DNA of 64,000 bases from an uncultured bacterium (GCA_964387845.1 CAYLXA010000001.1:224001-288000), one strand, 5' to 3'. Shown: positions 5,521-53,560, counted from the first letter of the stretch. Made by a program: numbers and translations. The notes: generated from the letters alone by a model not told the origin.

Positions 5521-5565
5521 TGGTAGCGGGGGCCGGATTTGAACCGACGACCTTCAGGTTATGAG
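5521..5565 (-). repeat. Displaced 3' half of tRNA-Met, including an encoded CCA. This is the attR-side direct repeat of the island.
   Basis: The 42-nt stretch 5524..5565 is identical to 53424..53465, the 3' half of the intact tRNA-Met. It is preceded on the minus strand by CCA and sits next to the integrase. Confidence 0.8.
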
Positions 5566-10570: not shown

Positions 10571-11814
10571 GAAAGCATACCTCGCTTGAGCGCTTCCAGT
10601 TTCGCCTCGAGAATGCGGAAATTCGCAACACCTTGAATGAAATAAATCCGCGACTTTAAATAATCCTGATAAGCTTCAAAAACCTGAAGACGAGAGGCTT
10701 CGTTAACAATCATTTTCGTTTTTTCATTCTCATAGACCTCTTTCTTTTCCCGTTCAGCGGCTTTGTCTGCCTGAATCTTCTTCCTCGCAACTTCTAATTG
10801 AACCGACATGGCCTTGATCTGCCGTTCAAACTGTTTTATCTCAATCTCACCCTGCAGTTCCGCTTCCTCAACTTCCAGTCTTTTAGCTTGCACGAGATCC
10901 CGTGTCCGTCCAAAGTCCCAAATGTTCCACACGCCTTCAACGCCGAATTCGTAACGGTTCTGGTCCAGAAAGGAATCCTTGGCAACCTTGTACCGGTTTA
11001 GAACTGAAATCTGTGGATAAAGCGAAGAGCGCTCCCTCTTTTCTTCCAATCGCTTTTCTTGGGCGCGCAGCTTCACTTCCTGATAAATGGGATTTTCAGA
11101 ATATTGACTCAAGTCCGGTTTGAACCGTTTAAGATCTTGGAGGGGTTCAAGATCAATGCGAAAATCATCGGGCAGTTTCAAGAGATCTCGCAATAGGTCA
11201 ACCCCGTAATCCATCGTTTTCTTATGACTGACGAGCTCATACTGCGCAGATTTGTATAACGCTTCTGCGCGGTAAACTTCACGTTTTGTAATGAGCTCTT
11301 TTTCATGAAGCGCTTTAAAAGAGCGGTAAATCCTCTCTGACTCTTTCAGCCATTCTTGAGCAAGCAGAGTCATTTCCTTTTCCGTTATTGTTTGAATGAA
11401 AAGCGTCCTGACCTCAAACTGAACGCGCTCACGCTCATTTGAAATCTCGAGCTTCACCTGCTCTTTCTTAACAGAATGAATTTGCGCTTCGCTCCGTGCT
11501 TTCCATCCGTCAAATACCGGAAACACGATTTCGTTGGTCCAAAATAAAACGCCGGAATCCTTCTGCGTGACGGCTGCGCCGTAAGCGCTCGTTCTTACAT
11601 AAGGCCAGCAGAACTTCTTGGCATGTTTCAGCAGCGCTTGTTCCTTTTCAAGGCGGATTTGAAGCAGACGGATGCCCTCGTTGTCATTGAGCACCCGTTC
11701 AAAAGCTTCGTCCAACGTTAAGAGCTTTCCCGCTGGAAGGCCTTCTTCCGGAAACGCGGATGCCGCGTTTCCAAGAAGAAGCATGATGAGTAAACCTGCC
11801 CGCAACAATCTCAT
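10567..11814 (-). CDS. TolC-like outer-membrane efflux protein (OMF family)
   Basis: Signal peptide. A duplicated coiled-coil/beta architecture of ~415 aa. The stop overlaps the GT2 start. Confidence 0.65.
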   Translation of the reverse strand: MRLLRAGLLIMLLLGNAASAFPEEGLPAGKLLTLDEAFERVLNDNEGIRLLQIRLEKEQALLKHAKKFCWPYVRTSAYGAAVTQKDSGVLFWTNEIVFPVFDGWKARSEAQIHSVKKEQVKLEISNERERVQFEVRTLFIQTITEKEMTLLAQEWLKESERIYRSFKALHEKELITKREVYRAEALYKSAQYELVSHKKTMDYGVDLLRDLLKLPDDFRIDLEPLQDLKRFKPDLSQYSENPIYQEVKLRAQEKRLEEKRERSSLYPQISVLNRYKVAKDSFLDQNRYEFGVEGVWNIWDFGRTRDLVQAKRLEVEEAELQGEIEIKQFERQIKAMSVQLEVARKKIQADKAAEREKKEVYENEKTKMIVNEASRLQVFEAYQDYLKSRIYFIQGVANFRILEAKLEALKRGMLS

Positions 11815-12990: not shown

Positions 12991-14007
12991 TCAATCTAGC
13001 CAGCGAAAGCCTTCGATCCGTAAGTTGCGCTCTCCCTCATCTTCAAACAGGAGGACTACCGGCTTTTCGCCTTTCTTCAAGGATCGTCTGTCAAATTGAA
13101 TGATGCCGTACTGATAAGAATCCGGAGCTACGCTTTTTTCACTCTTAAGATCAGACGGCAGTTCGACCAAGCCTTCTTTGACTTTGCGCAGACCCAAAGA
13201 TTTTTTCTCATAAGTCTGAAGCCCTACGACCATTTCCCTGATTTTGTAATCTGTTTTCGATAAATTACGAATACTGAACCTAAGATACGCTTTCTCGCCA
13301 ATCGTGGAGATGGTTAATAGGTTGAGCCTCACACCGCCCTCCTCTGCGTAATCTTTCAGCTGAACCGCTTCATTTCCTTTTTTGATTTCCTCTTTCAATT
13401 TTTCTTCGGACAAGTCCTCGGCTTTCGCATCAAGCGCTTCTTCCTTCTGTTTAAACTTTTCTTTTATAGCCGTTTCGGTTTCGTTAACCCGCTTTTCAAA
13501 TGCGTTGTCTACGATCATGTCCTCATCCGGATACCTGAAATCAATTACGAAATCAGCTGTTTCGGGTTTCCCGACCGTAACATCAAAAGTAAGCCGCGAG
13601 GATTGCGTCATGATAGTCAGATTTGTCCGCGCATCAGGATCATCCGTGACCGGTTTTATAATGACTTCCTTCTCAAAAACGCCGACTTTGAAGAGTTCCT
13701 GATCTCCGATAAACACCTTGAGCGCGGGCTCTGGCAGATCGATTGTGGAAGCATAACCGAGAGCTGTTTGGAGTTTGTAAACCACGTTCGGCCTCATGCT
13801 TGCGGAGTAAATCCTCTTCTCGCTAACGGAATTCCTATTGATCCGTTTTCTTTCGGCTACAGCGTCCTGCGGCACCTGGTCTGGGTTGGCGACGCTAAGC
13901 TCTGCTTGCTCTACGCTATTTAAATCCTTCCCAAATTCCTCTGCGCAATAGCCATCGTGCGCAAGTGCAATTAAAATTACTGCGATTAAAGTAAAGCATT
14001 TCATCAT
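12991..14007 (-). CDS. trbG: T4SS component TrbG/VirB9
   Basis: Signal peptide. A ~340-aa secretin-like outer-membrane-complex protein. The position between trbF and trbI matches the P-type order. Confidence 0.65.
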   Translation of the reverse strand: MMKCFTLIAVILIALAHDGYCAEEFGKDLNSVEQAELSVANPDQVPQDAVAERKRINRNSVSEKRIYSASMRPNVVYKLQTALGYASTIDLPEPALKVFIGDQELFKVGVFEKEVIIKPVTDDPDARTNLTIMTQSSRLTFDVTVGKPETADFVIDFRYPDEDMIVDNAFEKRVNETETAIKEKFKQKEEALDAKAEDLSEEKLKEEIKKGNEAVQLKDYAEEGGVRLNLLTISTIGEKAYLRFSIRNLSKTDYKIREMVVGLQTYEKKSLGLRKVKEGLVELPSDLKSEKSVAPDSYQYGIIQFDRRSLKKGEKPVVLLFEDEGERNLRIEGFRWLD

Positions 14008-14663
14008 GATTTCTGTTCATCCTTTCTTGACAAATCATTGAGAATCAACTCTTTGTAACCATCCACAAGAAGACCTTCGGGCGTGTTTGAACTTCGGGAG
14101 ACTTTCTTTAAAACGATATCTGCGCGGAATAAGATTTCCTCCCGGAAGGACGGTTCGTCATATCTCGAGATTCGCCTGACACCAAGGAGCGAAACAACCG
14201 CGGCATCGGGTGCATCACGCTCGATTTTCGTTTCTTTAAATTCAAGTTGGGTGTCAATTTGAGCGGTCTTCAGTTTTTCAACCAAGCCCGAATCAATAAG
14301 TGATTTTCTAGCCTCATGTTGAAGCCTCGTGGTCATTAAATTGAAGGCTTCCGCGAGGTCTTTTGTGACTGTGTACGAATTAAAGCCCGTATATCTGAGC
14401 GTAAACCGTTTTGATAGGGCAATGATTTCATGGTGCGTGGGCTCGTTATGTTTTGGCAGGTCTCGAATTACTTGTGCGCCCTCAACTTCTGAAACTCTGA
14501 TGACTACCGGAGGTTTCATGCCTAATATGACGGAACCCGCAAAGGCAAGCAGCACGATGAAGGCAAGTATAAGGTTGGCTTTCCTTAAGAATTGAATTTC
14601 CATTTCGAGGTCGCCAAAAGCTTCAAAGTAGCGGCGTTTGACCTTTGCAATGATTTCGCTCAT
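14004..14663 (-). CDS. trbF: T4SS component TrbF/VirB8
   Basis: Bitopic protein with an N-terminal TM and a periplasmic NTF2-like domain, at the expected position. It shares 4-nt overlaps with its neighbours. Confidence 0.6.
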   Translation of the reverse strand: MSEIIAKVKRRYFEAFGDLEMEIQFLRKANLILAFIVLLAFAGSVILGMKPPVVIRVSEVEGAQVIRDLPKHNEPTHHEIIALSKRFTLRYTGFNSYTVTKDLAEAFNLMTTRLQHEARKSLIDSGLVEKLKTAQIDTQLEFKETKIERDAPDAAVVSLLGVRRISRYDEPSFREEILFRADIVLKKVSRSSNTPEGLLVDGYKELILNDLSRKDEQKS

Positions 14664-19468: not shown

Positions 19469-19837
19469 TTAAAATTTATTTTTCAGTATCTGGATTCCCA
19501 CATATTTCTTGAGTTTGGTCGCAGCCCTGCGTATATGCATCCGTACGATCGCGCTATCTGAAATATTCAACTCTTCTGCTATTTCCAGATTGCTCAATCC
19601 TTGCAATGTTAATCTGACGCACTCACGCTCTCTCTTAGACAGCCCGGCACGACTTATGGCTCGTCTTGCCATTTCTTTCTGTTCATTTTCAATCAGCACC
19701 TCGACCGGCGAGGGCTGAGTGGCCACCTTCTTCAGAATTTCTTGATGCAAATCGGTTTTTGGGTCATTTTCGATCTTCTGAAAATCGACACCGATACGCA
19801 CCGTTCTCTTTGTTTTCCATTGAGTGTTGTTTTCCAT
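19469..19837 (-). CDS. Small sigma-70 region-4/LuxR-type HTH regulator
   Basis: RERECVRLTLQGLSNLEIAEELNISDSAIVRMHIRRAATKL is a sigma-70 r4 HTH. The gene is immediately upstream of the trb promoter motif. RBS GGAGGTGG. Confidence 0.6.
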   Translation of the reverse strand: MENNTQWKTKRTVRIGVDFQKIENDPKTDLHQEILKKVATQPSPVEVLIENEQKEMARRAISRAGLSKRERECVRLTLQGLSNLEIAEELNISDSAIVRMHIRRAATKLKKYVGIQILKNKF

Positions 19838-20324: not shown

Positions 20325-21362
20325 TTATACGAGTTGATATTGCCGGTTTTGAATTTCCAAGTTACTTTCCTCCTTTTCGTACTCCGTTAGATAATCAAAG
20401 CTGCAATCTTCACAGAATGAGCCGCCGGTTGCTTCGTCATAAAAGAGTTTGCCGGCTTCCACTTGGTCTTTACACAGTGAACATAGAAGCTTTGATTTTT
20501 CAGTGATGTTTGAATCTTCGAGAAATCCCATATACCGAAGCTCATCAAAGCTGTAGAGATAGGGATTCCCCGGCACTTTGAAGTCATCCTCTGTGAGCGA
20601 CTTGCGCATCGGGTTCTCCATCTCGCAAGGTATTTTTCGCATGGGACATTTTTCAGAAAGTTCTTCAACGTTAATTTTGTAAAGCACGTTGGATTGAATC
20701 TCGAGAAAATTGCCTTTCATGAAGTTTCTTGCAAGAGCGTATTGCAAGTGGATTTTCTCGCTCGACCAAAGCAAGGTTTTGAACTTAGGGACATAAACAG
20801 CGTAAAGCGTCCGTTCAACATTTCGGATGAGATAAAGCGTTTTCCTGTCATCCGTTTGCATGAATGCCAACGCAAAATCCCCAAACATCATCGAAAGCCG
20901 TTCAGCGACTTCTCTGTCGGAGGAGGCGCCATCCAAAACACGGAATACCGCCTCGCTATCGACGTCAGTTTTTTGCTCCGTGTTAAATCGTTTGAGAAGT
21001 TCAGTTCGATTTAGAAAATGCCCATTGTGCACACCGGCAAAATTCTCCGAGACAAACGGATGACAATTCCGGGATGAGATTGCTCCTACTGTGGCAAGCC
21101 GCGTATGGCCCAGAACAATGAGCGTATCCGCACCGATTTTCTTGATGACGTTACGCATCCGGACGGTGCGCAAAAGCTCGCTCGCTGGTCTGGCTTCCTT
21201 GAAAACGGTCATGCTCTCTTCTGCTGCTGTGAGCAATCCAGTTCCGTCTTGACCTCTTGTTTCATTGAGAAAAGCCAAATCCATCACTACGCCTTGAAGC
21301 CTCAGTTTCTCTGCTCCGCTTAAGGGCAGGGCCTCTCTCACAAATCCGAATATTCCACACAT
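20325..21362 (-). CDS. Class-II (Ntn-type) glutamine amidotransferase, YafJ-like, with a C-terminal zinc ribbon
   Basis: MCGIFGF gives the N-terminal nucleophile Cys2. The GATase-II fold continues through ...HTRLATVG...NCHPF. The C-terminus CSLCKD...CEDCS forms a CxxC-Xn-CxxC ribbon. Confidence 0.7.
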   Translation of the reverse strand: MCGIFGFVREALPLSGAEKLRLQGVVMDLAFLNETRGQDGTGLLTAAEESMTVFKEARPASELLRTVRMRNVIKKIGADTLIVLGHTRLATVGAISSRNCHPFVSENFAGVHNGHFLNRTELLKRFNTEQKTDVDSEAVFRVLDGASSDREVAERLSMMFGDFALAFMQTDDRKTLYLIRNVERTLYAVYVPKFKTLLWSSEKIHLQYALARNFMKGNFLEIQSNVLYKINVEELSEKCPMRKIPCEMENPMRKSLTEDDFKVPGNPYLYSFDELRYMGFLEDSNITEKSKLLCSLCKDQVEAGKLFYDEATGGSFCEDCSFDYLTEYEKEESNLEIQNRQYQLV

Positions 21363-21410
21363 GGTAAGTCTCCTTAGGTTTAATTGGGATTGAACTACTG
21401 AAGTGATAAA

Positions 21411-22685
21411 TTACTTTTGAACAGCTGCCAGAGTGGGAGCTGTTTCGAAGAACTTCTCGGGATGAAACTTTAAGATCCTTTGCTCGATGTAATTCCGAAT
21501 CTTCGTCCGGAATTTCAGCAGCACGCAGAATGCCTCAAACTGTTCTTTGAATGAAGCAAACTCCGAAAACCTGAAGTCTCTTTGACGCTTTGACTCGTCT
21601 ACGATCGCTTGGCAGATCACAATGAAATTTGTAATCTTAAGCGGGTTCGTTGTTCCCGAGTGATAGCGAAACTCCACTGAACGCCTGAAGAACCAAGAGT
21701 GAATGTTGACACCGAAGTATCTTGAGTTGTCAAACTTAGACTTCGTATCCACTCGCGCATTCCTTCTGCCGTACCAGAGCCGCTTTAAATCCATCTCATC
21801 TTTGACTTTGAACCGGAACCGTGATTTGGGAAATCGATTGAGCGGCACGGAGTAAGAACCGGAAAACCTTGATTCCGGAAGCATGGCATAAATCACCGGC
21901 TCAAACGCCACCGCAATCTTCAGCAATTTCTTGATGTTCTGAAAATCAAGATCCCGCCCATCAATGTGGACATGAAGACCGCAGCGCTTGTCCACGAAGT
22001 AATTCCAGTCAAGCAGCTTTTGAGTGAAAATGGCGATTTCGTTAAAGCCGTCATCGCCTTGAAGAATCGGGCTCGCAAATTCCATGCCCCAATCTCCCAG
22101 AGAGCCGTCATGCTGTTTGCTCCAAGCGCCCACTTCATCAACCGGAAGATGCATTTCCTCATCCCGAAGTATGGCTTCAATTTCCACGCCGTATTTTCTT
22201 TTTGATTTGCACAGTTTGAATTTAGCCGACGAAAATTCATGGTGCTGAATCAGCTCGCCGTTCTCCACCATGCGGTCGTAACAGTCTTCACAGTAAGTTG
22301 ACTCCCCTCTTCTAAAGCAGCGGGTAGAGTCAACCTCAGAACCGCAATCCTCGCAGAAGATTATGTTTTCAGATTCACAGGCGGAGCAGTAATAGACGTC
22401 CTGCAAATCTGAATAACGAGCGTCCTCTGACGCCGCATATTCCCCGCAGGCATTGCATTCCCTGTAATTGGCGTGAAAGCAGCTTTCACAAAGCCTCAAC
22501 CCTGCAACTGCAAAGGATTCGTCAAGCCACATGGGACGTTCGCATTTCCCGCACGGCTTCACACGTTTTTCAAAACACGCCGGGCAAAGATACCGGTCTT
22601 GATAGGTTTTAAACAAATCGACGTTTACGACAACACTGCAGGACGGGCATTTCTTTTCTTCTGCCCGTATTTCCAAAAGTTCCAT
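21411..22685 (-). CDS. Glutamine-synthetase/GCS2-like carboxylate-amine ligase (amidoligase) with an N-terminal array of four zinc ribbons
   Basis: Eight CxxC pairs lie in the first ~150 aa. They are followed by YGVEIEA, GMEFASP, GLHVHIDG and SVEFRYH, which resemble the E-x-E / H-x-H / EfR motifs of YbdK/GCS2-type ligases. Confidence 0.55.
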   Translation of the reverse strand: MELLEIRAEEKKCPSCSVVVNVDLFKTYQDRYLCPACFEKRVKPCGKCERPMWLDESFAVAGLRLCESCFHANYRECNACGEYAASEDARYSDLQDVYYCSACESENIIFCEDCGSEVDSTRCFRRGESTYCEDCYDRMVENGELIQHHEFSSAKFKLCKSKRKYGVEIEAILRDEEMHLPVDEVGAWSKQHDGSLGDWGMEFASPILQGDDGFNEIAIFTQKLLDWNYFVDKRCGLHVHIDGRDLDFQNIKKLLKIAVAFEPVIYAMLPESRFSGSYSVPLNRFPKSRFRFKVKDEMDLKRLWYGRRNARVDTKSKFDNSRYFGVNIHSWFFRRSVEFRYHSGTTNPLKITNFIVICQAIVDESKRQRDFRFSEFASFKEQFEAFCVLLKFRTKIRNYIEQRILKFHPEKFFETAPTLAAVQK

Positions 22686-26688: not shown

Positions 26689-26766
26689 TAACAGATGGAA
26701 AATATTTTTTTATGTCTATTAATGAACTCAATTCATTCAACTCACCACTTCCTCACGAGCACCTGT

Positions 26767-26863
26767 CCAAAAACCCTATCTCTCTACACACACCACACCC
26801 ACTGACAAGTACCCCTCGATTACGGATGGGAGAGATAGGGTTTTTGGACGGGGACTCTCCCCG
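26767..26863. repeat. Inverted repeat with 18-bp perfect arms, CCAAAAACCCTATCTCTC...GAGAGATAGGGTTTTTGG, around a 45-nt loop. A 6-bp hairpin follows. Candidate oriT or structured RNA.
   Basis: The arms are read directly from the sequence at 26767..26784 and 26830..26847. It lies in the 450-bp non-coding gap between the STAND gene and the mobilisation operon. Confidence 0.5.
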
Positions 26864-27004: not shown

Positions 27005-30000
27005 TTATATAGTAGCCTCTGCGTCTTGGGTAAGCTCTTGTTTCATTTGTTCATCGCCGTAATTTCCAACATCTAAATAAAATTGATGCGCAGGGTGTTC
27101 TACACTAAAAAGCTTTGCGGTTTCCTTACCGCGAGTTGCTAGATTTTGGCTCTTTGCTGAGACTTCTCCAAATGACCTTGATGATCCCCCGCTAATTGCT
27201 ATTCCAAATAGATTGGATTTTACACGTTTAAGGCATTCAGCAGATTTATTTGAAGCCAATAGAATCAACTCTCCAACAAAAGCGTGCTCGTTAAATATAA
27301 AATTATCCTCCGCGTCTCTGACTAAAAGAGATATGCCCACAAGTTTATTTACAGTAGGATTTTTAAACCACTCTTTTAATATAGCTAAAGATTTAGCCGA
27401 ATACCCATCTGAAACTGCCCGAAAAAGCTTTTCAAGCCAAAAACGATCCGCTGTTTTTGCTAAAGACAGATTTCGAACTACTCTTACGTGCTTCTCATAT
27501 CCCATCATCGTGGAAATACCTTTATAAGCAGTGTCAAATCCTAAATACGGAAGGGGCGTATAATTTTCTCTTCTTGTAAGTTTTTTGACGGGCTTAGTTG
27601 ATTGACTATATAAATAGCGTGCAACTAAAAACTCAACGGCTGCCTGCGGATATTTTCTACAAACAAAAGAAAGGAATTCCTCAACATGGAAATCCTGCCG
27701 TTCAAAGATGTTAAATTTAACCAATTTGCTTAATAAGGATTTTAATTCGGTTTCATTCAGCTTAGAAAATGGAATGCCATAGTTCTCATTATAAATTTCA
27801 AAAAATTGGTCGAGCACTATTCCTCTTTCTTTCAAATCAATGCCCACAGCAAGTTTCTTAGCAGCTTCCGCATCAACCTGCCCTAGTTTTTGAAGTGCCT
27901 GAAGCGCCGTGCCAAAAATATTGTCGTTGCTATGTTTGAGTAAATACCCTACATTCTGGATATCCTCTTTAAAGGGTTTTTCTAAAAGGCCGCCCCAAGC
28001 GTAGGCATGAGCAATGTTGTGGTAGACGATTTGCCTTTTTGTTTTTAGTCCTTGTTTAATTAACGCCCTACTGATTTCTCGATAACTTTCCAATCCATTC
28101 AAGGGCCATAAAATTGATGAGCAAAATTTTTCCACTTCACCATTCTTTCTAGCGAGGCAAAGCTTAAATAATTTTACGGCGAAATCGGGATTGAGTTTTG
28201 TAATTTGAGAAAGAAGGTAATTGGGGTTAGCTGATCTTTTGTAGTGATTTAAATCGCGTAATCTTTTTTCTAAAACCATTAACAACTGACGAGGATTCTT
28301 AGCCTGTTTCAATAAGATTTCAGCTACCCCGCTCACCTCTTTTGCCGTTATTTCAGTTTGTTTACTAAAATCATGCTTTTTATTAACAAATTCTTCGAAA
28401 TCGTGAGCTATCGCACGGACAAGACGATATTCGAAATTCTCCGGTATAAGCTCATAAATACTTTTGATTTTTTTCTTTAATTCGTCGTGCCTTCCAAACA
28501 AACTAAACCAACGAAGTTGCGATCTTACGGCAAGTCGGAAACAGGACGACTTAATGATCTTTAATTTTCTTTTAACCAATTCGAGAATTGATAACTGTTC
28601 TGGCAAATAAACATCTTGCTCTGACTTTCCAGCGCGACGACCGTATAGTCCATGAGAATAGCTCAATGCTTTTAAGAGAGTATAAAGAGCTTCCATTAAC
28701 ATCTTTGGCGGGGCATCCGGTTGGATGAAGGAGCCAAGTAATTCTATAGTGCTATTACGCAAGTTTTTCACGGCTTCGTAATTTAAAGGCAAAGACCTGA
28801 AGGACATGCTTCCTTCATCGTACGAAGACTCTTCAATCTCTTTCGCGAGGAATTCTTCCAAAATATTCAAAGGTGTATAACGGTAAATAAAGTTATTTTT
28901 CTTGGCCACGGTTTCTTTAAGGAAGGCAAAAACTTTCTTATTGTAAACAAGGGGCTTTCCGACTTGATATTCAGCCAACTCTTTTAAGATTCTAACGGAA
29001 TGCTGCGGATGAGGATTTAATTCTCTTTCGTCAGTTTTTGCAATTTCCCAGAGAATTTTACAGGCAGGAGTGACATATTCTAAATTAAAGGCTATCTTTT
29101 TTAATATAGATGGAATTTTTTCCAATACATGACGATGCTTCCAGAAATCTCCATATAATTGCTTCTTAGGATTAGGGCGTGCGGGCGCTTTAATGGCGTG
29201 GTTTACTAGCTCTAATGCTTTATCAGGTTGATAATACGCCGACTCTTCGATTTCTTCCAAGATTTTAGTTCGCTCATAATGATCAGCTTTTCTAAAATCT
29301 TCGTGGATTTTTTTCCAAACGGAACTTAAAAGATCTACATTCAAGGCATTTTTTCTTGCTCGCCACTCTACTTCAGAAATATTTTTAAGAATGTTTTTTG
29401 CTAGAGTTGATTTAAATTTCTCATACACATGATCAGCAAATTTAGTGCTTGAGCCATCTTTGGCAATACAGGCTGAGTGAAGAATATGATCACTCAATAA
29501 ATCAGGAGCAAGCCTTGCCAACGCTCCGCGTCTTATCAAAACCCCTTTTTCTTCCATCGCATCAAATGCTTTGACAATATCAAAAACAGGACACGCAAGA
29601 AGTTCGGACAATTGTTTCCGTAACTCCTCGTTATTCAATCTCACTGGGGCAAGCACAGAAAGATATTGAAGAAGCTTATCTGCTAATCCCGGATTGGAGT
29701 AATTTTCTCCTTTAAGTTCATCTATAAATTTATCTAAAACGGTTCTTTGAAATTCATCGCTTTTGCTTATTTTGTATGGATGCAGCTTTTTATCGCGAAT
29801 TAATTTGCTGGCAATTACCGCTGCCAGGGGGCAGTCTCTGGTCATAGCCACGATATATTTAATCAGGCCAGAATCATGTCCGACAATGCTTTCAACGATT
29901 TCTTCTAAATCAACCTTTTTCAAATCACTTAACTCCGGAGGCCGTTCGATTTCGTTTAACAAAAGATTTGTATGCGCCAATACACTATCGACAAATTCTT

Positions 30001-30919
30001 TTCCGCGAGGGCGAATAGACAAAATGATTTTGATTTCGTCTTTCCGTGGAGAGTTGAAAATTGATAAAAGGTTGGGAAGACTCGTATATCTATGAGCATC
30101 ATCAATAACCAAAATGCTGCGGCCAGCCGGAAGAAGAGAAATTGTTTCAGTAGTTAGAACAAAGTTTTCACGAACAAATAAGACCCTAGCCCACTCACTC
30201 ACACCCACTTCTTGTTTTTTAGAAAATTCTAATAATAATTTACTTTTACCAATGCCGCCTCTTCCCGTAAGAACGATTACCTTCTTATCCGAGTTTGCAA
30301 AAGCTTCTAGACTAGACAATTCTGAGCTACGACCGACAAGATTAATCTCATGAGAAAATAAAACATCGCGCCGTAAGAGCGTACGAAAAAAATCTTGATA
30401 CGAAACAAGCGGCCCCTTTTTTCTATCTTCAAACTCCTTATAGGCGCTTATTGCGTTTAAAAATTCCTCACGAAGCTGATCAGACTCTGAAAATCTCTTA
30501 AATGTTCGCTCTTGTGCAACCTTATCAAAAAAAGCTTGGTGTTTCTTTTTTACTTCCAGGTCTTCGTCTTTAGGCTGCCATTCTTTTCCATTCGGAGTTT
30601 TTAAAAAAACAAAAACTTTTAAGCCTAAGCGGGTAGCTCGCTCATATTCTATTTGAGTATAAGAAATGCCAGCTTTGGGATTTACGGTTCCATACAGAGG
30701 CCCGATTAACAAGACAACGCAATCAGATCCCTCTAGATGCCGAAGACACGTTTCTTCAGGCGTATCAGGACTTGAAGGAAACCATTCCATTGCAGAAAAT
30801 TCTGTACCTTGTGCCGGAGTTAAACCTAAGAGGTTATTCCGTTCATCATTTAGACCAGCTTGTGGTGAACTTAAGAAGATTTTGAACTTTTTGAGGTCAG
30901 CCATTGAAAACTCTTCCAA
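27005..30919 (-). CDS. STAND-class P-loop NTPase. It has a DUF4062-like N-terminal domain and a ~900-aa C-terminal helical-repeat region, an architecture like the Avs/bNACHT antiphage sensors.
   Basis: N-terminal KIFLSSPQAGLNDERNNL matches the DUF4062-type start. Walker A is VLTGRGGIGKSKLL and Walker B is ILVIDDAH. The C-terminal ~900 aa have long alpha-helical repeats. The protein is 1304 aa. Confidence 0.6.
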   Translation of the reverse strand: MEEFSMADLKKFKIFLSSPQAGLNDERNNLLGLTPAQGTEFSAMEWFPSSPDTPEETCLRHLEGSDCVVLLIGPLYGTVNPKAGISYTQIEYERATRLGLKVFVFLKTPNGKEWQPKDEDLEVKKKHQAFFDKVAQERTFKRFSESDQLREEFLNAISAYKEFEDRKKGPLVSYQDFFRTLLRRDVLFSHEINLVGRSSELSSLEAFANSDKKVIVLTGRGGIGKSKLLLEFSKKQEVGVSEWARVLFVRENFVLTTETISLLPAGRSILVIDDAHRYTSLPNLLSIFNSPRKDEIKIILSIRPRGKEFVDSVLAHTNLLLNEIERPPELSDLKKVDLEEIVESIVGHDSGLIKYIVAMTRDCPLAAVIASKLIRDKKLHPYKISKSDEFQRTVLDKFIDELKGENYSNPGLADKLLQYLSVLAPVRLNNEELRKQLSELLACPVFDIVKAFDAMEEKGVLIRRGALARLAPDLLSDHILHSACIAKDGSSTKFADHVYEKFKSTLAKNILKNISEVEWRARKNALNVDLLSSVWKKIHEDFRKADHYERTKILEEIEESAYYQPDKALELVNHAIKAPARPNPKKQLYGDFWKHRHVLEKIPSILKKIAFNLEYVTPACKILWEIAKTDERELNPHPQHSVRILKELAEYQVGKPLVYNKKVFAFLKETVAKKNNFIYRYTPLNILEEFLAKEIEESSYDEGSMSFRSLPLNYEAVKNLRNSTIELLGSFIQPDAPPKMLMEALYTLLKALSYSHGLYGRRAGKSEQDVYLPEQLSILELVKRKLKIIKSSCFRLAVRSQLRWFSLFGRHDELKKKIKSIYELIPENFEYRLVRAIAHDFEEFVNKKHDFSKQTEITAKEVSGVAEILLKQAKNPRQLLMVLEKRLRDLNHYKRSANPNYLLSQITKLNPDFAVKLFKLCLARKNGEVEKFCSSILWPLNGLESYREISRALIKQGLKTKRQIVYHNIAHAYAWGGLLEKPFKEDIQNVGYLLKHSNDNIFGTALQALQKLGQVDAEAAKKLAVGIDLKERGIVLDQFFEIYNENYGIPFSKLNETELKSLLSKLVKFNIFERQDFHVEEFLSFVCRKYPQAAVEFLVARYLYSQSTKPVKKLTRRENYTPLPYLGFDTAYKGISTMMGYEKHVRVVRNLSLAKTADRFWLEKLFRAVSDGYSAKSLAILKEWFKNPTVNKLVGISLLVRDAEDNFIFNEHAFVGELILLASNKSAECLKRVKSNLFGIAISGGSSRSFGEVSAKSQNLATRGKETAKLFSVEHPAHQFYLDVGNYGDEQMKQELTQDAEATI

Positions 30920-31071: not shown

Positions 31072-31428
31072 TCACGCTGAGGAATTATCAAGTGAAATCG
31101 ATAAGAGCCAATGGCCATTGTGCTGATTTTTGATTTTTTTAAGATTTTCATACCGTTTAAACAAATCATCCGGCAAACGTTCAAGGGCGTTTTCGATATG
31201 CTTATTGACAGTCTTTGGCTTAATTTTCATGGCTTGAGCGATTTCCTTCCGCTTCATGAAAAGCGAGAGAATAAAAGACGCCTTCTGGCTTGCCGTCAGC
31301 GAACGGAATAAGACCGGAGAACGGGGATTAATCTTTTCAGAGAACACGCGAGAGTTTGATTGGTCTCGCTCCTGCTCTCTGACAAGTTGTTCTAATTCCG
31401 GTGAAAACTTTTTAAATTGTTTTGGCAT
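31072..31428 (-). CDS. Small sigma-70 region-4-type HTH regulator
   Basis: LTASQKASFILSLFMKRKEIAQAMKIKPKTVNKHIENALERL is an ECF sigma r4-like HTH. Confidence 0.5.
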   Translation of the reverse strand: MPKQFKKFSPELEQLVREQERDQSNSRVFSEKINPRSPVLFRSLTASQKASFILSLFMKRKEIAQAMKIKPKTVNKHIENALERLPDDLFKRYENLKKIKNQHNGHWLLSISLDNSSA

Positions 31429-33188: not shown

Positions 33189-33968
33189 TCAACTCAGTTT
33201 CTCTCTTGCTTTTTTCAGCCAATTCTCCCAATTTTCAAGCGACTCACTATTGTCTCTGCTATTGTCCTTTCTTGTATAATCGGCTGCCTTGTCATAACAA
33301 TCACGAGCTTGTTCGTAGTCTTCTTTTTCAAAATACTGATGGCCCCTTATGCCATAGGCGCCCGCCAATATATATGGTGCAACATCCTGTGCCATAATCA
33401 ATTTGTCAAAAAAGAAACTAGCAGATACTTCATCATCGATTTGCCAATAACAAGTAGCCAAGTCTAAATAAGCAGAGTACACTCTTTCTCTCTCAATATC
33501 GTCTTTGGGCGGATAAAATTCCTGAATAATCCTTCTCCCAAAAGTTATGGACTTTTCAAATTGATCCAAATTCTTATGACAGATGCTAAGAAGGCTCAGA
33601 ATATTTAAAAGAAATTTACTTCTGTTTTCCCCAGCCGATAACGCTTTCTCCAAATATCCTATCGCTTCAACATCGTTGCCCAAGGCAGAGTAAGATTGGC
33701 CAAGTGATTTATACAGAAAAGGTAGGTCCTTATGTTTTGGATTCATTGATAATGCTTCCTGGAAACACTCAATAGCTTTATTTTCCATATTATTTTCTGA
33801 ATATGCTTCGCCCAAAGTTTCCAAAAATTCATAACGAAGTTGTGAGTTCGAATCTTTGGGCACGTCGTTTATTATTGCTAACAGTTTTTTTAAAGCTTCC
33901 GATGCTTTGGCTTCATACATTAACTCGTCAGCCAATTTGATTTCTTTTTTGATTAAATTCGATCTCAT
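33189..33968 (-). CDS. TPR-repeat protein, a candidate immunity or accessory protein immediately after the Rhs toxin gene
   Basis: Multiple 34-aa repeats with the A/L/Y pattern (ALGNDVEAIGYLEKAL..., AYGIRGHQYFEKEDYEQARDCYDKA). Confidence 0.55.
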   Translation of the reverse strand: MRSNLIKKEIKLADELMYEAKASEALKKLLAIINDVPKDSNSQLRYEFLETLGEAYSENNMENKAIECFQEALSMNPKHKDLPFLYKSLGQSYSALGNDVEAIGYLEKALSAGENRSKFLLNILSLLSICHKNLDQFEKSITFGRRIIQEFYPPKDDIERERVYSAYLDLATCYWQIDDEVSASFFFDKLIMAQDVAPYILAGAYGIRGHQYFEKEDYEQARDCYDKAADYTRKDNSRDNSESLENWENWLKKAREKLS

Positions 33969-33979
33969 TATTTTAAACC

Positions 33980-36900
33980 CTAGTAATTATTTGTCGGATC
34001 GTGGTCAATATAATCTCTCGAAAATTCGCTGCCTTGATTTACTAACTTTGCAATGCCTTCTAGAAATCGGCCTATCTTAGTTTTGAATTGCTCCATCCTA
34101 ATTTGACGAGTAGGCTCGTTTGCTGGCCTTGGCCTAAATCTATCCATAGATTTTATGGCTTTTTGTTTAACTTTTTGATTTGCCCCTGGTTTTTCCCGCG
34201 AACTACGTTTTTGAAATTGTTTTTTAGGACTTGATCGACTTGTTTTTGCTTCTCTAAGCAAAATATCGGGAGCGGAAGCTACCTTTGCCGCAGAAATGGT
34301 TAGCGCGATCATGCCATCTGTTACGACGGGATAGTTACCCGCCGTCGGCGGCCCTCCGGGTAGCCCGGATCCCTCTCCTGGCAACTTAATGTTATCTACA
34401 AGCTTATCTGCTATCGCTTGTTTGTCAATGAATCGATCAATTGACTCTGAAAAATGTATTTCATTAGTCAAGCTTGCGCTTGTCATAGTTGCAGCGCTTA
34501 TTTGCGTAGCTGCGAGTGCCGCAGATGCAGATGCAATGCCGACAGCTTCTGAAATAGTAAAGGCGGAGCCTGATGCGGTGGTTAAAAGTGCGCTGCTTGC
34601 TTCTACATATACGTCGCCGCCTGCTAGCACAGCTTCACTGATAGTTATGTTGCCTGCGCCCGTACTCAACGCACCAGCTGCCGCTTGTAACGTTTGTAAA
34701 ATAACTGTGCCTGCCATTTGTATAATGGTAATAGCGGTTGTAGCTATAGTAATGGCTAACTTTACGACTGCGGCAATAATTGCAACTATAATCCACCAAA
34801 AATTACCGCTAGGATCGACAAATCTTATCGGATTATTCCTTGCGTAAGCATAACGATTGAAACTTTGCGGATCCTCGGGGCTTTGAATGAATGAATCGGG
34901 AGTAATAAAGCGACCTATTTGAGGATCGTAGTACCGGGCGCCAGCATAAATGAGATCAGACTCAAGATCTTCTTCATGGCCAGTATAAGTTCTATTAACA
35001 ATATCCGTTCCTTCCCGACGTTTTACTTCGCCATACGGTAAATACTCCATCAAAAGCGTTTGCATACCAGCTTCATTAGAAACAACATTGGTCGAACTTA
35101 AATGATCTTGATGGTAGAATCTTAAGTGCGGGATGCCTTGACTGGAAATTTCTAGATCGCTCACTCGTACTTCGCCCAGATAAAATCCCTTACGAGTCAA
35201 CAAATTATTAGGCCCATATTGAACTTCATAGTCCTTTCCTAAATAATAAGTGATTTGATTGTCGGCACTTTTCTTAACTCTTTGGCCCGTAGTATCGTAA
35301 ACATAAGAACCAATAAGTATAGGTTGATTGTCAGCAGGATTGCTTTGTATCGTGGCACTGATACTCTGAGAATTTGTAACATAAATCTTGTATGTTTTGC
35401 CAGTTTCCAATGTTGTGATGTCTGTAAATTCAGGGTCAATCACGAAGTGATCCCATGCTTGTGCGGTTGAATCCCAATACGAAATCTGGTCATAATCCGG
35501 ACCGATATTTAATCCAGAAAATATTTCCTGAATATCACTCATATATTGGCCGGACGTTGTGTTAAAAGGCTGGAAAGGGAGTGTGAAGGTATTCCATCCT
35601 GGATTAAATTGAAATGTATGATCTTGAGGTTCGCTAGATGCCCCCCTTGTCAGTTGCACAAGCTGGTTCTCAAAATCATACGTCAACAATTCATTATTCC
35701 GCTGGATCATATTGCCATTGGCATCATAGGAAAACGTGATTGTTTCCGATGAGTCTACGTATTGCGTAACTGCTTGGGGATGCAACGGGTCATTGTATTG
35801 AAGAGTGGCATTATTTTTTTGAGTCATGTTTCCAATTGCGTTGTATTGGAAATCATGAATTCCGTAACCTTGCGGATTAGAGGCTTGGATTAATCGATCA
35901 AGGTCGTCATATTGGAAGCTCTGTGAATTGGTGTTGATCGAATCCTGAATGGAAAGCACATTACCTTCGTTATCAAAGGAATATCCAAAATCCTGTAGTA
36001 ATTGATTTTGACCGCCTCGGGTTAATAGATGCGTTAATCGAAGTGATTGCGGATTATAGGTGTAATCTGTTGTGACACCATTCCCATATTGAATCTTTAT
36101 GACCTGCCCGGAGGGGTTATAGTCGACATTCGAAATGATTGACATTTGAGTTTGATCGGTGCGTATAAGCGCCATTATTTCCGTCTCGCCCATGCCGTTA
36201 TAAGTTATATTGAGAACATCGCCATCTGGATATTCAAGGGATGAGACTCTGTCTAGCGCATCATAAACTCGTGTAAAGACGTAATCATTTCCGTCATCAA
36301 GGGATTTTTTATCCTGAATGACACGACCTAGTGGGTCATAACGGAAAACCTGAATGCCGGAGTTGTCAGCAACTTTGACCAATTTTCCGATGGAATAATT
36401 AGTGCCAGGCAATCCGCCGCACGTATCAGATGGACATGAATCATACACGTAATCAACGTGGTTTCCGTCAGGGAATGTTTTCTTTGTGATCCGATTCAAC
36501 GGATCATATGTAAATTCTATTCGCGATCCACGCGCATCAATCTGAGCTGTTAAGTTATCGTTCGAGTCATACTCATATTGCCAGAATCCAGTATTAGGAT
36601 CATTGACGCTCCTTTTACGGCCTAATGTATCGTAAATGATGATCGTTTCATGTCCATAATGGTCGATAGTTTTCGTCAAACGACTTTGCGCATCGTATTC
36701 ATACTGCGTTGTATATATTTCTGCGCCATTAAACTCCTGCACTTCAACAATATTGCCAAACGCATCCTGCGAGATTCTTTTTTGATGATTATTTCGATCG
36801 ATTTCGGTCCTCACAAAGTCATCATAAATTATTCTGGAAAATGTTAAATCTGGATAGGTGGTTTTGATGATGCGACCCATCGGGTCGTAATCGTACGTGA

Positions 36901-45663: not shown

Positions 45664-46155
45664 TCACGCCTTATTTGATGAATCTTCTCTTTGTGGCCCC
45701 AAAATCTTCTTCAAAGCTGTAATCAAATTCAAATGAAAGGACTCATTTTTTGGAATAACAGCATGAAATAAAACTCCTTCTAACTGATAGTACCATTCCA
45801 TCCGTGGAAATTCATCTGTCGTGAGGCAAAGCATTGGGAGTTTTATGCCAGCATTTTTTATTCTGCGCGCAAGCTGAATTCCCCAATTAAAATCGATCTT
45901 GGTATCTTTCAATTTTAACAAATGTTTGGCGAGCGGTAGATTTGATTGCGTTCTCATGGACAAAGCAAGAGATTCTCCCCCAATTCGCATTTCTTTGGAA
46001 ATCACAATTGCATCGACTTCATGCCTCCTAATGGCTTCTTCAATAAAGTTTTCACTAGATATTCCTATAACCTCATAGGCAAAGGATTCAAGAATTGGCC
46101 GCAAATCAGCTACCAGATAATCTTCCTCTATGAAGAGAAGTCTTTTCATAAACAT
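45664..46155 (-). CDS. Degenerate receiver-like (pseudo-receiver) protein
   Basis: REC-like alternation of strands and helices, but the acidic pocket reads EED and the phospho-site position is Ser (IVISKEM). Confidence 0.4.
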   Translation of the reverse strand: MFMKRLLFIEEDYLVADLRPILESFAYEVIGISSENFIEEAIRRHEVDAIVISKEMRIGGESLALSMRTQSNLPLAKHLLKLKDTKIDFNWGIQLARRIKNAGIKLPMLCLTTDEFPRMEWYYQLEGVLFHAVIPKNESFHLNLITALKKILGPQREDSSNKA

Positions 46156-48434
46156 TACGATTCTGATTCTCGGTTCTCATTTACGGCATTTTCGGTGGGA
46201 AGCCAAAACACAAACTTTGATCCGCCTTCAAGTCGCTTCTCAAGCCAAATTTTTCCACCATGAAACTCTTCTATAATTTTCCGGCAAACATATAAACCCT
46301 GTCCATGCCCCGCATCCATTGAGATAACTGATTGTGGTTTGGGTTTCGTAGAAAACCCTTGTGAGAAAACCTTATCAAAGAGTGATTCAGGAACTCCAGG
46401 GCCCTCATCCCAATATTCAAACCATGTTACCGGTTTTTCGTTATTGTCACGTTCTGAACCAGTAAGATAAATTAAATCGTTCGGTTGTCCCGCTAAAGCA
46501 TCAATCGAATTCTTAAATAAATTCTCAAATACCTGCTCCATCATGTACACATTCCCGAATAATTTAAATCCTTCGGAGAGCGTGACTTTAAATTTTGGCG
46601 TGTCATCAATGTTCAAATTGCGCTTTGCTGTTTCCCACGGTACCCTAAAATCCATGACTTGCTTCATGTTCTTATCTCCCGCAAGAGCGCCAACAACTGA
46701 ATCCACAACTAACTTGACTCGATCTGCCATGCCTTCAATATCACGCGAATACTTAACGATCGATGCATCAATCTCTTCAAGCTGTCTAGCTTCAATATTG
46801 GTTAGTTTATCTTTAAGTTTATTTTTTAAGCGATTCACGCGGTCTGGCAAATGAAGGCGCATGTTAATGGCAGCACTTCCAACTCCCACTAACTTATTAC
46901 CAGCTTCGTGCTTTAAGCTCCTGGTGAAATTAACTTGTTCGGCAATCTTTTGCGCTTTGACTTTTTCTTCACGCTCAATAACAATATCATTTACGAGTCT
47001 TGTATTTTCTGTGGCAATGGCTGAATCCTGGGCAATTGTAAAAAAAACATCCAAATCCTCGCTTGTGTATGGCTCGTCAGATTTCTTACCGCCAAGAACT
47101 AGCACATTGGAGATTTTCTGATTAAATCCATTGCTTTCAATATCAGGCTGACCAATAAAACTAGGAATTAATGCTTCCGCTTTCAATGCATTGAAAATGT
47201 TGAGAATGTCAGACTGAGATTGAGAATCGAGTCTTTCATCTTTCATATTTTTTTCAATGGAATATGCTGTGATTGGACCATTCTGCGATGTTAATAATCT
47301 GATTACCGGGTGGTTTTCGGAAATTGTTAGCCGCGGACGATTACTTCTACCACCGTATCCTAATGGATACCTCAGATCATATTCATTATTATTGGTTCGC
47401 ATTAAGATTCCCGCATTTCTAATCCTCCCCTGTTTAACCAAATATGCGGAAACTTGTTTAGCTAATTCGTCCAAACTGTGGATGAATGCGATTTGCTTTG
47501 CATTCTCTTTGAGAAGTTTGTGGTAGTCGTATTTTTTTTGGAATAAAAATTTATCAGTAATATTGGTTAAAATTTTTTCCACGGGTCTATAAATAAAAAC
47601 AGATGCTGCAATTCCACATATCATGAGAAAAAAAGGTGATATGCCCACCGTTCTTCCAATAATCATCTGAGTCAACCCTATGGGAATAGAAATCGTCAGA
47701 ACAGATATCGTTACAACTCCAGCAAATACTAGAGTTCGCTTAATAATAAGTTTTATATCCAACAACTGATATTTAACAATTGAAAATGCCACGGTAGCAA
47801 CGTAAACCGCTACCAAAATATTTCCGACAGGTGGAATTTTTATGTTATACCACAAGAAATGATTTGTCATTCCGCCCAAGAAACCTATGAGCGTACCTAA
47901 AAGAACACTAAAATTTCTCTTCCAGACAATTGAATGCTTCTCCTTGATCAGCCAAACAATCATTAAATAATGCGAAACAGTAACATTTAAGGCAAACCAC
48001 AAATGAAATGCATAGAAAAGCGGTCCAGGAACAGGCCAATAGGCAAATGTTAAGCGTTGTTCGACAGTTTGGATGAAATAAGCATTGAATGAGAAAAATA
48101 TTATGACAACACCAAAAATCAAATTCATTAAACGAATAATTCTGTGCTCAGATTCCTTTCCCAGCAGATGGATTATAAACTCGGTAAAAGAAGGCGGTAT
48201 CAAGGTTGAGCCTACCATTGCTAAGCGTATCCAAAATAGCGCTACATCCGCACTAGCAGACGTCATTGTCCATACCCAGACAGCATAACACGCAGCCCAA
48301 AATCCAACGCTAATAGCGAATATTACAAATATAAGATTCAATCGTTTTGTGGGGTTTTTGTGAAGGACAAGAAAACTTACGGAAAAACTTGTAAGAGCGT
48401 TAATAATCGCGGACCAAAAATAATAACCTGTCAT
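46155..48434 (-). CDS. Membrane sensor histidine kinase (7TMR-DISM-type N-terminus, C-terminal HATPase)
   Basis: ~8 N-terminal TM helices. H-box-like SLKHEAGNKL. N/G1/G2 boxes ...NLFKNSIDA..., YWDEGPGVPE, GHGQGLYVCRKII. Confidence 0.7.
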   Translation of the reverse strand: MTGYYFWSAIINALTSFSVSFLVLHKNPTKRLNLIFVIFAISVGFWAACYAVWVWTMTSASADVALFWIRLAMVGSTLIPPSFTEFIIHLLGKESEHRIIRLMNLIFGVVIIFFSFNAYFIQTVEQRLTFAYWPVPGPLFYAFHLWFALNVTVSHYLMIVWLIKEKHSIVWKRNFSVLLGTLIGFLGGMTNHFLWYNIKIPPVGNILVAVYVATVAFSIVKYQLLDIKLIIKRTLVFAGVVTISVLTISIPIGLTQMIIGRTVGISPFFLMICGIAASVFIYRPVEKILTNITDKFLFQKKYDYHKLLKENAKQIAFIHSLDELAKQVSAYLVKQGRIRNAGILMRTNNNEYDLRYPLGYGGRSNRPRLTISENHPVIRLLTSQNGPITAYSIEKNMKDERLDSQSQSDILNIFNALKAEALIPSFIGQPDIESNGFNQKISNVLVLGGKKSDEPYTSEDLDVFFTIAQDSAIATENTRLVNDIVIEREEKVKAQKIAEQVNFTRSLKHEAGNKLVGVGSAAINMRLHLPDRVNRLKNKLKDKLTNIEARQLEEIDASIVKYSRDIEGMADRVKLVVDSVVGALAGDKNMKQVMDFRVPWETAKRNLNIDDTPKFKVTLSEGFKLFGNVYMMEQVFENLFKNSIDALAGQPNDLIYLTGSERDNNEKPVTWFEYWDEGPGVPESLFDKVFSQGFSTKPKPQSVISMDAGHGQGLYVCRKIIEEFHGGKIWLEKRLEGGSKFVFWLPTENAVNENRESES

Positions 48435-49450: not shown

Positions 49451-49453
49451 TGC

Positions 49454-49831
49454 TTACACTCCCAAACAATCCATAACTGTTTTCAATAGCTCCCTTATAT
49501 CAAAGGGCTTCATTATATAAGCAATCGGATTCAGCTTTCTCGCCTCACGCTCTATATTATCATCTGCAAATCCAGTAACAAAAATAGTGGGAATTTTCTT
49601 TTGCTTTTTACTCATGTTTTCTTGAATTTGACGCACGGTTTCAACGCCGCTCAGCCCTGGCATGCGTATATCCGAAATAACAAGATCAAAGTCATCTTCG
49701 TCCATTATAGCCACCGCGTCAGACCCATTGCGCACGGTATAAACTTCGTATCCCTGCTTTTCAAGAAGCCGACTCAGAGACTTAATGAGCAATTCCTCAT
49801 CATCAATTACCAAAATTTTCTTTGCTGACAT
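49454..49831 (-). CDS. Single-domain response regulator (CheY-like)
   Basis: KILVIDDEELLIKSL...LVISDIRMPGLSG...KP. Confidence 0.75.
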   Translation of the reverse strand: MSAKKILVIDDEELLIKSLSRLLEKQGYEVYTVRNGSDAVAIMDEDDFDLVISDIRMPGLSGVETVRQIQENMSKKQKKIPTIFVTGFADDNIEREARKLNPIAYIMKPFDIRELLKTVMDCLGV

Positions 49832-53416: not shown

Positions 53417-53423
53417 ACGAAAC

Positions 53424-53497
<74 letters not shown>

Positions 53498-53560
53498 ATA
53501 AAAGATAAAAACGAAGATGTATTATATAAAGCGAATGACAGATTTGCAAGCGCGGCTAAT

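Follow-up and report, generated by a model that had tools for sequence, protein, structure and literature searches.

What does a 64,000-nucleotide stretch of DNA from an uncultured bacterium (GCA_964387845.1 CAYLXA010000001.1:224001-288000, here called the window) encode in the uninterrupted open reading frame (ORF) that runs on its minus strand over 27005..30919, with 1304 codons counted from a TTG, and does the product act in immunity? An initial annotation had read the ORF as a 1304-amino-acid (aa) STAND NTPase with a DUF4062-like N-terminal module, a probable antiphage or antiplasmid sensor carried as cargo of an integrative and conjugative element (ICE). Our analysis supports this central reading and makes it probable that this is a single-gene, NLR-like immune sensor that resembles the Avs (antiviral STAND) proteins, reportedly described by Gao et al. 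in 2022, that it carries a NAD-degrading head, and that it travels as cargo of an ICE integrated at tRNA-Met. The gene and the modules of its product are arranged as follows, with residues given in the numbering of a 1299-aa protein:

27005..30904, minus strand: complete gene of the DUF4062-STAND-solenoid protein, 1299 codons plus a TAA stop (27005-27007)
30410..30904, minus strand: DUF4062 or 'NIR' TIR-like domain, predicted NADase effector, residues 1-165 (Pfam PF13271, KpSwz 10wc, profile search, AlphaFold2 model)
30647..30649, minus strand: codon of E86, equivalent by alignment register to the catalytic Glu of KpSwz (E97), Eva01 (E87) and TEP1 (E1008)
29225..30409, minus strand: STAND NTPase module made of linker, P-loop nucleotide-binding domain, helical domain and winged helix, residues 166-560 (motifs, Foldseek, Pfam)
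30242..30265, minus strand: Walker A motif GRGGIGKS, residues 214-221, invariant in 63 of 63 homologues
30092..30115, minus strand: Walker B motif ILVIDDAH, residues 264-271, with DDAH at least 90% conserved
27008..29224, minus strand: HEAT/ARM-like alpha-solenoid, predicted ligand sensor, residues 561-1299 (AlphaFold2, Foldseek, family conservation)

The start of the gene is almost certainly the ATG at 30904 (MADLKKFKIF..., 1299 aa), 15 bases downstream of the TTG at 30919. We place it there because the homologue P0002 (83% identical) is likewise 1299 aa long and begins MAGPKKFKIF, because DNA similarity to the P0002 locus sets in at 30907, and because the same 1299-aa gene call is present in an independent metagenome assembly, SRR15237813. 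The frame is open from the TTG, as the initial annotation had it, whereas its length of 1304 aa, which implies a start at that TTG, almost certainly does not hold. The N-terminal sequence that it quoted, KIFLSSPQAGLNDERNNL, is found at residues 8-25, and the quoted Walker A and Walker B motifs lie at the residues given above. DNA similarity to the P0002 locus is limited to the ORF (30907-27006, 80.7%). Since it stops at the ORF ends, the gene is mobile as a single-ORF unit that travels alone. The ratio of nonsynonymous to synonymous substitution rates (dN/dS) against P0002 is 0.078 overall, 0.12 in the head, 0.06 in the nucleotide-binding oligomerisation domain (NOD) and 0.08 in the sensor, estimates that are rough at a dS of ~1.2. 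The sequence comparison nevertheless points clearly to purifying selection, with all three modules constrained.

The identity of the head bears most directly on how the protein might act. The proposed likeness to DUF4062 is a real match, as the full Pfam model PF13271 (positions 1-82 of 82) covers residues 8-90 at 62.3 bits (gathering cutoff 24.7; E=5e-17). A phmmer sequence search of the PDB aligns residues 5-144 with the entry 'KpSwz TIR/DUF4062' (10wc, E=1e-10), the homology to KpSwz running out at about residue 150. A profile of 15 family heads finds KpSwz with E=1.5e-26 and the TIR-like domain of human TEP1 (11gz) with 4e-5. In the AlphaFold2 (AF2) model of residues 1-600 (pLDDT 88.3) the head, with pLDDT values mostly of 77-94 and one block at 64, consists of five beta-alpha units (strands 7-12, 34-37, 62-67, 96-102 and 136-138; helices 19-26, 49-58, 82-93, 116-129 and 141-163). 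The fold of the N-terminal module, which the initial annotation had proposed to check, is accordingly five-stranded beta-alpha with a TIR/flavodoxin-like topology.

The initial annotation regarded the effector chemistry of this domain as not established, a statement that is now superseded. Osinski et al. 2026 (bioRxiv 10.64898/2026.05.01.722283) characterized DUF4062 as a TIR-like NAD+ hydrolase and TEP1 as an active NADase, and described the single-gene Swarozyc system (KpSwz), which, once activated by a phage portal, depletes NAD+ and so aborts the infection. Ibarra-Chavez et al. 2026 (10.64898/2026.06.25.731849) reported the plasmid-borne Evangelion family with the same DUF4062 core and a catalytic 'E-Y' motif. 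NAD+ hydrolysis by KpSwz, Eva01 and TEP1 needs the Glu of this motif, and the activity of TEP1-TIR increases with concentration (10.64898/2026.05.01.722283; 10.64898/2026.06.25.731849). A further 2026 preprint (10.64898/2026.09.04.749371) renames DUF4062 as NIR and mentions STAND and Avs.

The catalytic Glu is kept in the protein studied here. The 'E-Y' motif corresponds to E86-Y87, and F10 and the AME motif are also present. E86 is invariant in the subfamily alignment, stands opposite the mutated Ala of KpSwz(E97A) in the profile search and is retained in 51 of the 54 DUF4062-bearing family members (local HMM count). A catalytically dead head was considered, as the phmmer alignment puts Q84 opposite the KpSwz Glu. 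It was excluded on the register of the deposited KpSwz chain, which is the E97A mutant: because its R18, D71 and A97 fit only a numbering offset of 13, the catalytic position is E86. By analogy with KpSwz, Eva01 and TEP1, the head would act as a NAD+ hydrolase through this residue.

The same domain could instead be catalytically silent and serve as an oligomerisation or adaptor module, as in NWD1, NWD2 and NPHP3, so that the protein signals or scaffolds without depleting NAD+. In vitro, TEP1 was active on NAD(P)+ and the other three human DUF4062-NACHT proteins, NWD1, NWD2 and NPHP3, were without NADase activity (10.64898/2026.05.01.722283), and the domain alone is thus no guarantee of catalysis. 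Moreover, Q84 lies near the active site, two positions before the catalytic Glu, where most relatives have E. Position 84 is, however, naturally variable across the family (E in 37, H in 8 and Q in 2 members, with others including L), while the invariant E86 is the residue whose mutation kills KpSwz. The head is also under purifying selection, and sister proteins carry bona fide killing enzymes (Mrr, SIR2) in its place, which argues for an effector rather than an adaptor. On balance, we consider a silent head unlikely and retain the reading as a NADase.

The central module belongs to the STAND NTPases, a class whose criteria were reportedly set out by Leipe, Koonin and Aravind in 2004. Over 63 aligned homologues, G191-R192 (the VGR motif), G214xGGxGK220, D268-D269-A-H271, R298-P299 and P467-D468-x-L-x-D472 are invariant or near-invariant; the sensor-1 Arg, R298, is invariant and P299 is at least 90% conserved, with the homologue P0003 reading TSRP. 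The helical domain carries a DC-P359-LAA motif and the winged helix is seen in the AF2 model as helices 426-452 and 468-479 with strands 456-459 and 462-465. Just past the winged-helix hairpin, a candidate MHD-like position is occupied by H473 in closer relatives and by Y, F, V or A in distant ones.

A Foldseek comparison of the N-half model with the PDB further supports this assignment. The best match is the TIR-NLR RPP1 (7crc_B, E=3.3e-11), which aligns over ~560 columns comprising head and NOD, and the next ranks are taken by EfAvs5, SAMD9, Avs4, Avs3, NLRP9, Apaf-1, an archaeal STAND-TPR protein (6mfv) and MalT. From rank 11 (RuvB) downward, generic AAA+ proteins such as RFC and NSF are mixed in among the matches. 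A plain AAA+ core, the outcome that would have spoken against the initial annotation, is not what we find, as the STAND hallmark motifs are present and STAND/NLR folds rank first. Within the class, the Pfam model nSTAND_NTPase5 (PF25199), which stands for one of the 'novel STAND' clades, matches over model positions 37-134 of 145 with 31.2 bits, below its gathering cutoff of 34, and AAA_16 and NB-ARC give other sub-threshold matches around the P-loop. Since a precomputed PF25199 match is present in 72 of 105 homologues, the family to which the protein belongs is probably part of the nSTAND5 clade, with our protein marginal. A literature search on 'nSTAND5' returned only unrelated ecology papers, the clade being described only computationally in the searchable literature.

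The C-terminal part is the predicted sensor. AF2 models residues 561-1299 as an all-alpha solenoid of ~740 aa with a single beta-hairpin (pLDDT 91.8, pTM 0.82), which Foldseek matches to SF3B1, karyopherins, CAND1 and PR65 (E 3e-6 to 1e-4). None of the solved Avs sensors is among these matches, and a PDB sequence search with the protein gave no match for the sensor region. The ~900 aa of helical repeats in the initial annotation therefore comprise two different parts: residues 561-1299 are indeed solenoid, whereas the STAND helical and winged-helix modules take up residues ~300-560. Its overall three-part layout of effector head, STAND NTPase and repeat sensor, as in Avs and bNACHT proteins, is borne out by Pfam, the AF2 models and Foldseek, which agree.

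To place this architecture among its relatives, residues 170-1299 (head excluded) were searched exhaustively with phmmer against 1.84 billion representatives. This returned 781 clusters at E<=1e-30, nearly all of ~1,280-1,380 aa and matching end to end, which suggests that NTPase and sensor form a chassis family of about 800 clusters at 50% identity in bacteria and archaea. The N-terminal stretch before the VGR motif varies from 56 to 402 aa across the homologues. A DUF4062 head is found in 38 of the best 150 representatives; other heads on the same chassis are Mrr_cat, alone or behind a helix-turn-helix (HTH), SIR2_2 (P0100, 1.3e-21) and DUF4365. Such a combination, in which switch and sensor stay constant while the killing heads are exchanged, characterises Avs-type conflict systems. 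Database names of the homologues are uninformative ('ATP-binding protein', 'hypothetical').

Two further kinds of head were noted on this chassis. P0022 from Chloroploca has a glycine-zipper/transmembrane (TM)-like N-terminus, and the P0013/P0027 group, which includes Q8TSN2 of Methanosarcina acetivorans, has a helical head of ~175 aa without family assignment; both are candidate new effector modules. In many reference genomes of Actinomycetota and others (L017-L047), we also observed proteins that match only query residues 5-230, which comprise DUF4062 and the start of the P-loop, at 20-28% identity. This similarity suggests that Actinomycetota commonly encode other DUF4062-NTPase fusions, which differ in what follows downstream.

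In the P0006/P0003 clade of the chassis family, an ORF of 259-268 aa overlaps the STAND stop codon (13881-14660 at locus L004, 13878-14684 at locus L006). These ORFs are homologues of each other (BLASTP 4e-15), neither Pfam nor PADLOC assigns them to a family, and they possibly represent a clade-specific accessory gene. A two-gene system with a downstream partner was considered and rejected for the gene studied here, as neither the window nor the other loci contain this ORF.

These loci also bear on what the head produces. A TIR-like enzyme working in the way of Thoeris or the plant TIR-NLRs would make a messenger derived from ADP-ribose (ADPR), to be read by a separate effector elsewhere in the genome. 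The best structural match, RPP1, is a TIR-NLR whose TIR makes signalling nucleotides, a ThsB-like TIR gene lies near the homologue at L006, and two homologues share the conserved overlapping ORF downstream. Against this, KpSwz and TEP1-TIR yield only ADP-ribose and nicotinamide, for TEP1-TIR explicitly without other ADPR derivatives (10.64898/2026.05.01.722283), and the gene moves alone and has no counterpart of the P0003/P0006 ORF next to it. A messenger-making head thus seems to us very unlikely, and degradation of NAD+ remains the preferred activity.

The gene is cargo of an ICE integrated at tRNA-Met, and the initial annotation, which had proposed ICE cargo, is now supported by exact borders. 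The element is complete and spans 47.9 kb (5524-53465) between exact 42-bp direct repeats:

5524..5565, no strand assigned: left attachment (att) copy, 42-bp exact direct repeat and displaced 3' fragment of tRNA-Met, adjoining the tyrosine integrase
53424..53465, no strand assigned: right att copy, the same 42 bp as direct repeat, forming the 3' part of the intact tRNA-Met (53423-53498, minus strand)
5648-6877, minus strand: tyrosine integrase, adjoining the left att copy

Its genes include homologues of VirB4, VirB9, VirB10 and TrbC, a type IV coupling protein (T4CP) and a MobC-type Replic_Relax protein (relaxase-accessory). The GC content of the STAND gene (0.382) differs from that of the ICE transfer backbone (0.459), which identifies the gene as cargo; outside the element the GC content is 0.46-0.47. 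A related ICE at locus L004 has an identical backbone order, and a homologue of the STAND gene occupies the corresponding cargo slot.

The genomic contexts of homologues provide further evidence on the biological role. P0002 (L001) is chromosomal and lies by smpB, with an HNH effector-type nuclease on one side and Lit (PADLOC 1.8e-24) on the other, followed by the DISARM-type DrmD (2.9e-212). P0006 (37% identical, at L004) is preceded by an HKD-Snf2 helicase and a type IIG restriction-modification enzyme and followed by Replic_Relax, T4CP, sigma-r4, TrbC and VirB4 genes, the ICE type and cargo slot being as in the window and the two Replic_Relax proteins 31% identical (E=5e-24). P0003, at L006, resides in a TraU/TraH element and adjoins the ThsB-like TIR gene and a type II restriction-modification system. 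P0020 (L008) comes after an integrase, CcdA and a type IIG restriction-modification enzyme, and L016 has ApeA and a DpdF/GajB-like helicase on its flanks. Defence genes thus neighbour the homologue in 5 of 9 contexts, a sample too small for statistics; the co-occurrence with defence genes that the initial annotation had counted on is found to this extent. The proportion is in line with DUF4062 genes generally, 'over half' of which are near defence genes (10.64898/2026.05.01.722283).

Could the protein nevertheless be a STAND regulator or an ICE maintenance factor without a role in immunity, such as a MalT-like switch, an addiction module or an exclusion factor? STAND clades have switched repeatedly between defence and non-defence roles (PMC13581612), many family members have an N-terminal HTH, the gene adjoins regulators and the ICE transfer module, and no adjacent gene within the window is a recognised defence gene (PADLOC). 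The protein itself, however, has no DNA-binding domain, and the HTH of its relatives usually accompanies an Mrr nuclease. The gene lies outside the ICE backbone and is marked as cargo by its GC content, while its closest homologue, P0002, is chromosomal and sits amid Lit, DrmD and HNH genes. The swapping of NADase, nuclease and SIR2 heads is moreover typical of conflict systems. We therefore regard a non-immune function as quite unlikely and favour an immune sensor.

The missing defence neighbour in the window is one of several observations that weigh against an immune NADase, together with Q84 and the inactivity of the three human relatives discussed above. No defence neighbour was found in 4 of the 9 homologue contexts (L007, L009, L010, which lies by a transposase, and L011). 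PADLOC is expected to contain models for Avs1-5 and bNACHT; version 2.0.0, whose set lacks models for Avs6-21, gave no match to the protein at E<=0.1. No NCBIfam model fits the protein, the only match being a meaningless one of 14.6 bits. Finally, differences in domain arrangement keep the Foldseek TM-scores low (0.24-0.39), so the fold assignment rests on the E-values and on the identity of the top-ranked proteins.

Taken with these reservations, the data are compatible with the following course of events. At rest, the HEAT-like solenoid would keep the STAND NTPase closed, nucleotide-bound and monomeric, with the DUF4062/NIR domains held apart and inactive. The solenoid would bind a protein brought in by a phage or another invading mobile element, and this binding would free the STAND module for NTP-dependent oligomerisation. 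The oligomer would gather the TIR-like DUF4062 heads, which would become NAD+ glycohydrolases (splitting NAD+ into ADP-ribose plus nicotinamide, through E86). Depletion of NAD+ would then abort the infected cell and protect both the host population and the ICE. Activation by oligomerisation is suggested by Avs, NLR and TIR precedents. A defence role and a protein trigger may likewise be expected by analogy.

Among known systems, the protein belongs by its head to the DUF4062 family and by its NTPase to the STAND class, and it would work like Avs proteins and TIR-NLRs. Lee et al. (Nature), in a 2026 survey, distinguish 198 defence-associated STAND clades (PMC13581612); their work also comprises a STAND tree of 589 clades and 684 clusters of sensors. 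Avs proteins (EfAvs5, which is a SIR2-STAND protein, Avs3/Avs4 and Avs7-21; PMC13581612) have, as here, effector, STAND NTPase and a large helical-repeat sensor in one polypeptide. They share with the chassis family exchangeable effectors, residence in mobile elements and defence islands, and the NTPase fold (9jap, 8dgf, 8dgc). In contrast, the solenoid of our protein is unlike the solved Avs sensors, and its head is DUF4062 and not a nuclease, SIR2 or canonical TIR. The plant TIR-NLRs RPP1, ROQ1 and WRR4A also combine a TIR-type head, a STAND NOD and a repeat sensor and are activated by effector-induced oligomerisation; they differ in having a leucine-rich-repeat sensor, NB-ARC and signalling nucleotides, and no sequence relationship was detected beyond the superfamily.

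With Swarozyc (KpSwz) and Evangelion (Eva01-04) the protein shares a homologous DUF4062 head, including the catalytic Glu and the aromatic and ME motifs, the single-gene and mobile-element-borne organisation, and presumed abortive infection by NAD+ depletion. Those proteins are only ~300 aa long and bind their trigger with a short auxiliary domain (HTH/winged), KpSwz assembling around the phage portal, whereas the present protein of 1299 aa has a 400-aa STAND switch and a 740-aa solenoid, and no homology to the auxiliary domain. In TEP1, NWD1, NWD2, NPHP3 and the bacterial TEP1-like proteins, DUF4062 likewise lies directly N-terminal to a STAND NTPase that is followed by a repeat sensor, and an oligomerisation-driven NADase logic is proposed for TEP1-type proteins as well. 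Here, the NTPase is nSTAND5-like, the sensor is HEAT-like and not WD40, and the gene is prokaryotic ICE cargo; the protein has no Pfam match to TROVE, NACHT or WD40 and no vWA domain. The protein falls outside Swarozyc, Evangelion, the TEP1-like proteins and every family with a PADLOC model.

The immediate surroundings of the gene include one feature that had been linked to its function:

31072-31428, minus strand: GerE/sigma70-r4 HTH gene, 118 aa (Pfam GerE, 24.6 bits), 167 nt upstream of the STAND gene

The initial annotation took this to be a regulator gene belonging to the STAND gene. The gene exists at this place, but it is not a conserved partner, as it was not found upstream of P0002, P0003, P0006, P0020 or any other homologue examined; P0002 instead has an HNH gene 10 nt upstream. 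A second small GerE/sigma70-r4 gene (19469-19837) was noted in the ICE backbone, directly upstream of TrbC as in L004. The products of 31072-31428 and 19469-19837 show no significant similarity to one another or to the sigma-r4 proteins of L004 and L009. A dedicated upstream regulator was rejected on these two grounds, conservation at no homologue locus and the lack of significant similarity among the sigma-r4 genes.

Downstream, the STAND gene is followed by a non-coding gap of 455 nt, which contains a 28-nt inverted repeat (26757-26784 / 26830-26857) with 89% complementarity and a 45-nt loop. As single-stranded DNA the repeat folds with -25.6 kcal/mol (z=-5.8), and it lies between the STAND gene on one side and, on the other, a 135-aa TM ORF with the genes for the MobC-like Replic_Relax protein and the T4CP, so that it is located just upstream of this relaxase/T4CP module. 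The repeat is plausibly either an oriT of the ICE or a (bidirectional) terminator. The initial annotation was thus right about a long non-coding flank on this side, whereas its interpretation as a mark of acquisition is no likelier than an ICE oriT or terminator. Structured RNA in the flanking gaps was also considered and rejected: Rfam finds tRNA-Met alone in the whole window, and promoter and terminator scans are at background.

The ICE carries several other groups of genes. A polymorphic-toxin cargo (33189-41705) comprises a 2070-aa RHS/TcdB/SpvB/FG-GAP protein (33980-40192), with a 503-aa Ig-like/glucodextranase-B protein ahead of it and a 259-aa TPR protein after it. A gene pair for Amidoligase_2 and a class-II glutamine amidotransferase (20325-22685) is set into the ICE backbone between the coupling protein and TrbC/VirB4. 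Signalling cargo occupies 44423-49831 and 52529-53152, with a 7TM-receptor histidine kinase (46155-48434), a SAM methyltransferase (48431-49450), and several receiver-domain proteins, among them a MerR-HTH/receiver fusion that adjoins the right att copy. Between the integrase and the type IV secretion system genes, 7330-11814 encodes an outer-membrane efflux protein (OEP), an HlyD-like adaptor, a family-2 glycosyltransferase and a nucleotidyl transferase; these genes are an unusual cargo or export module.

What would this locus add to the biology of bacterial immunity? Fusions of DUF4062 with STAND modules have precedents in eukaryotes and, in the form of TEP1-like proteins, in bacteria. Publications between 2022 and 2026 already cover the effector chemistry, the Avs-type logic and the association of DUF4062 with STAND, and the system is of a known kind. 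It is a good candidate for testing rather than a conceptual surprise. More tentatively, the nSTAND5-like NTPase and the 740-aa solenoid could constitute an uncharacterised pattern-recognition family that senses a class of invader protein outside those of Avs1-21. A component of conjugation or of ICEs and plasmids is a possible trigger, given that the gene turns up repeatedly in one and the same cargo position among related ICEs. On this doubtful but possible view, the DUF4062 branch would provide the first prokaryotic example of STAND-gated NIR/DUF4062 NADase activation and a direct model for TEP1 and NWD1/2. If the protein works as proposed above for the main reading, it would represent a DUF4062/NIR NADase that is switched on by a STAND NTPase in a prokaryote, a further sensor family among the bacterial pattern-recognition receptors and a further conjugative element with immunity cargo. 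As TEP1, NWD1, NWD2 and NPHP3 share its domain logic, the tractable bacterial single-gene version could then serve to model their mechanism.

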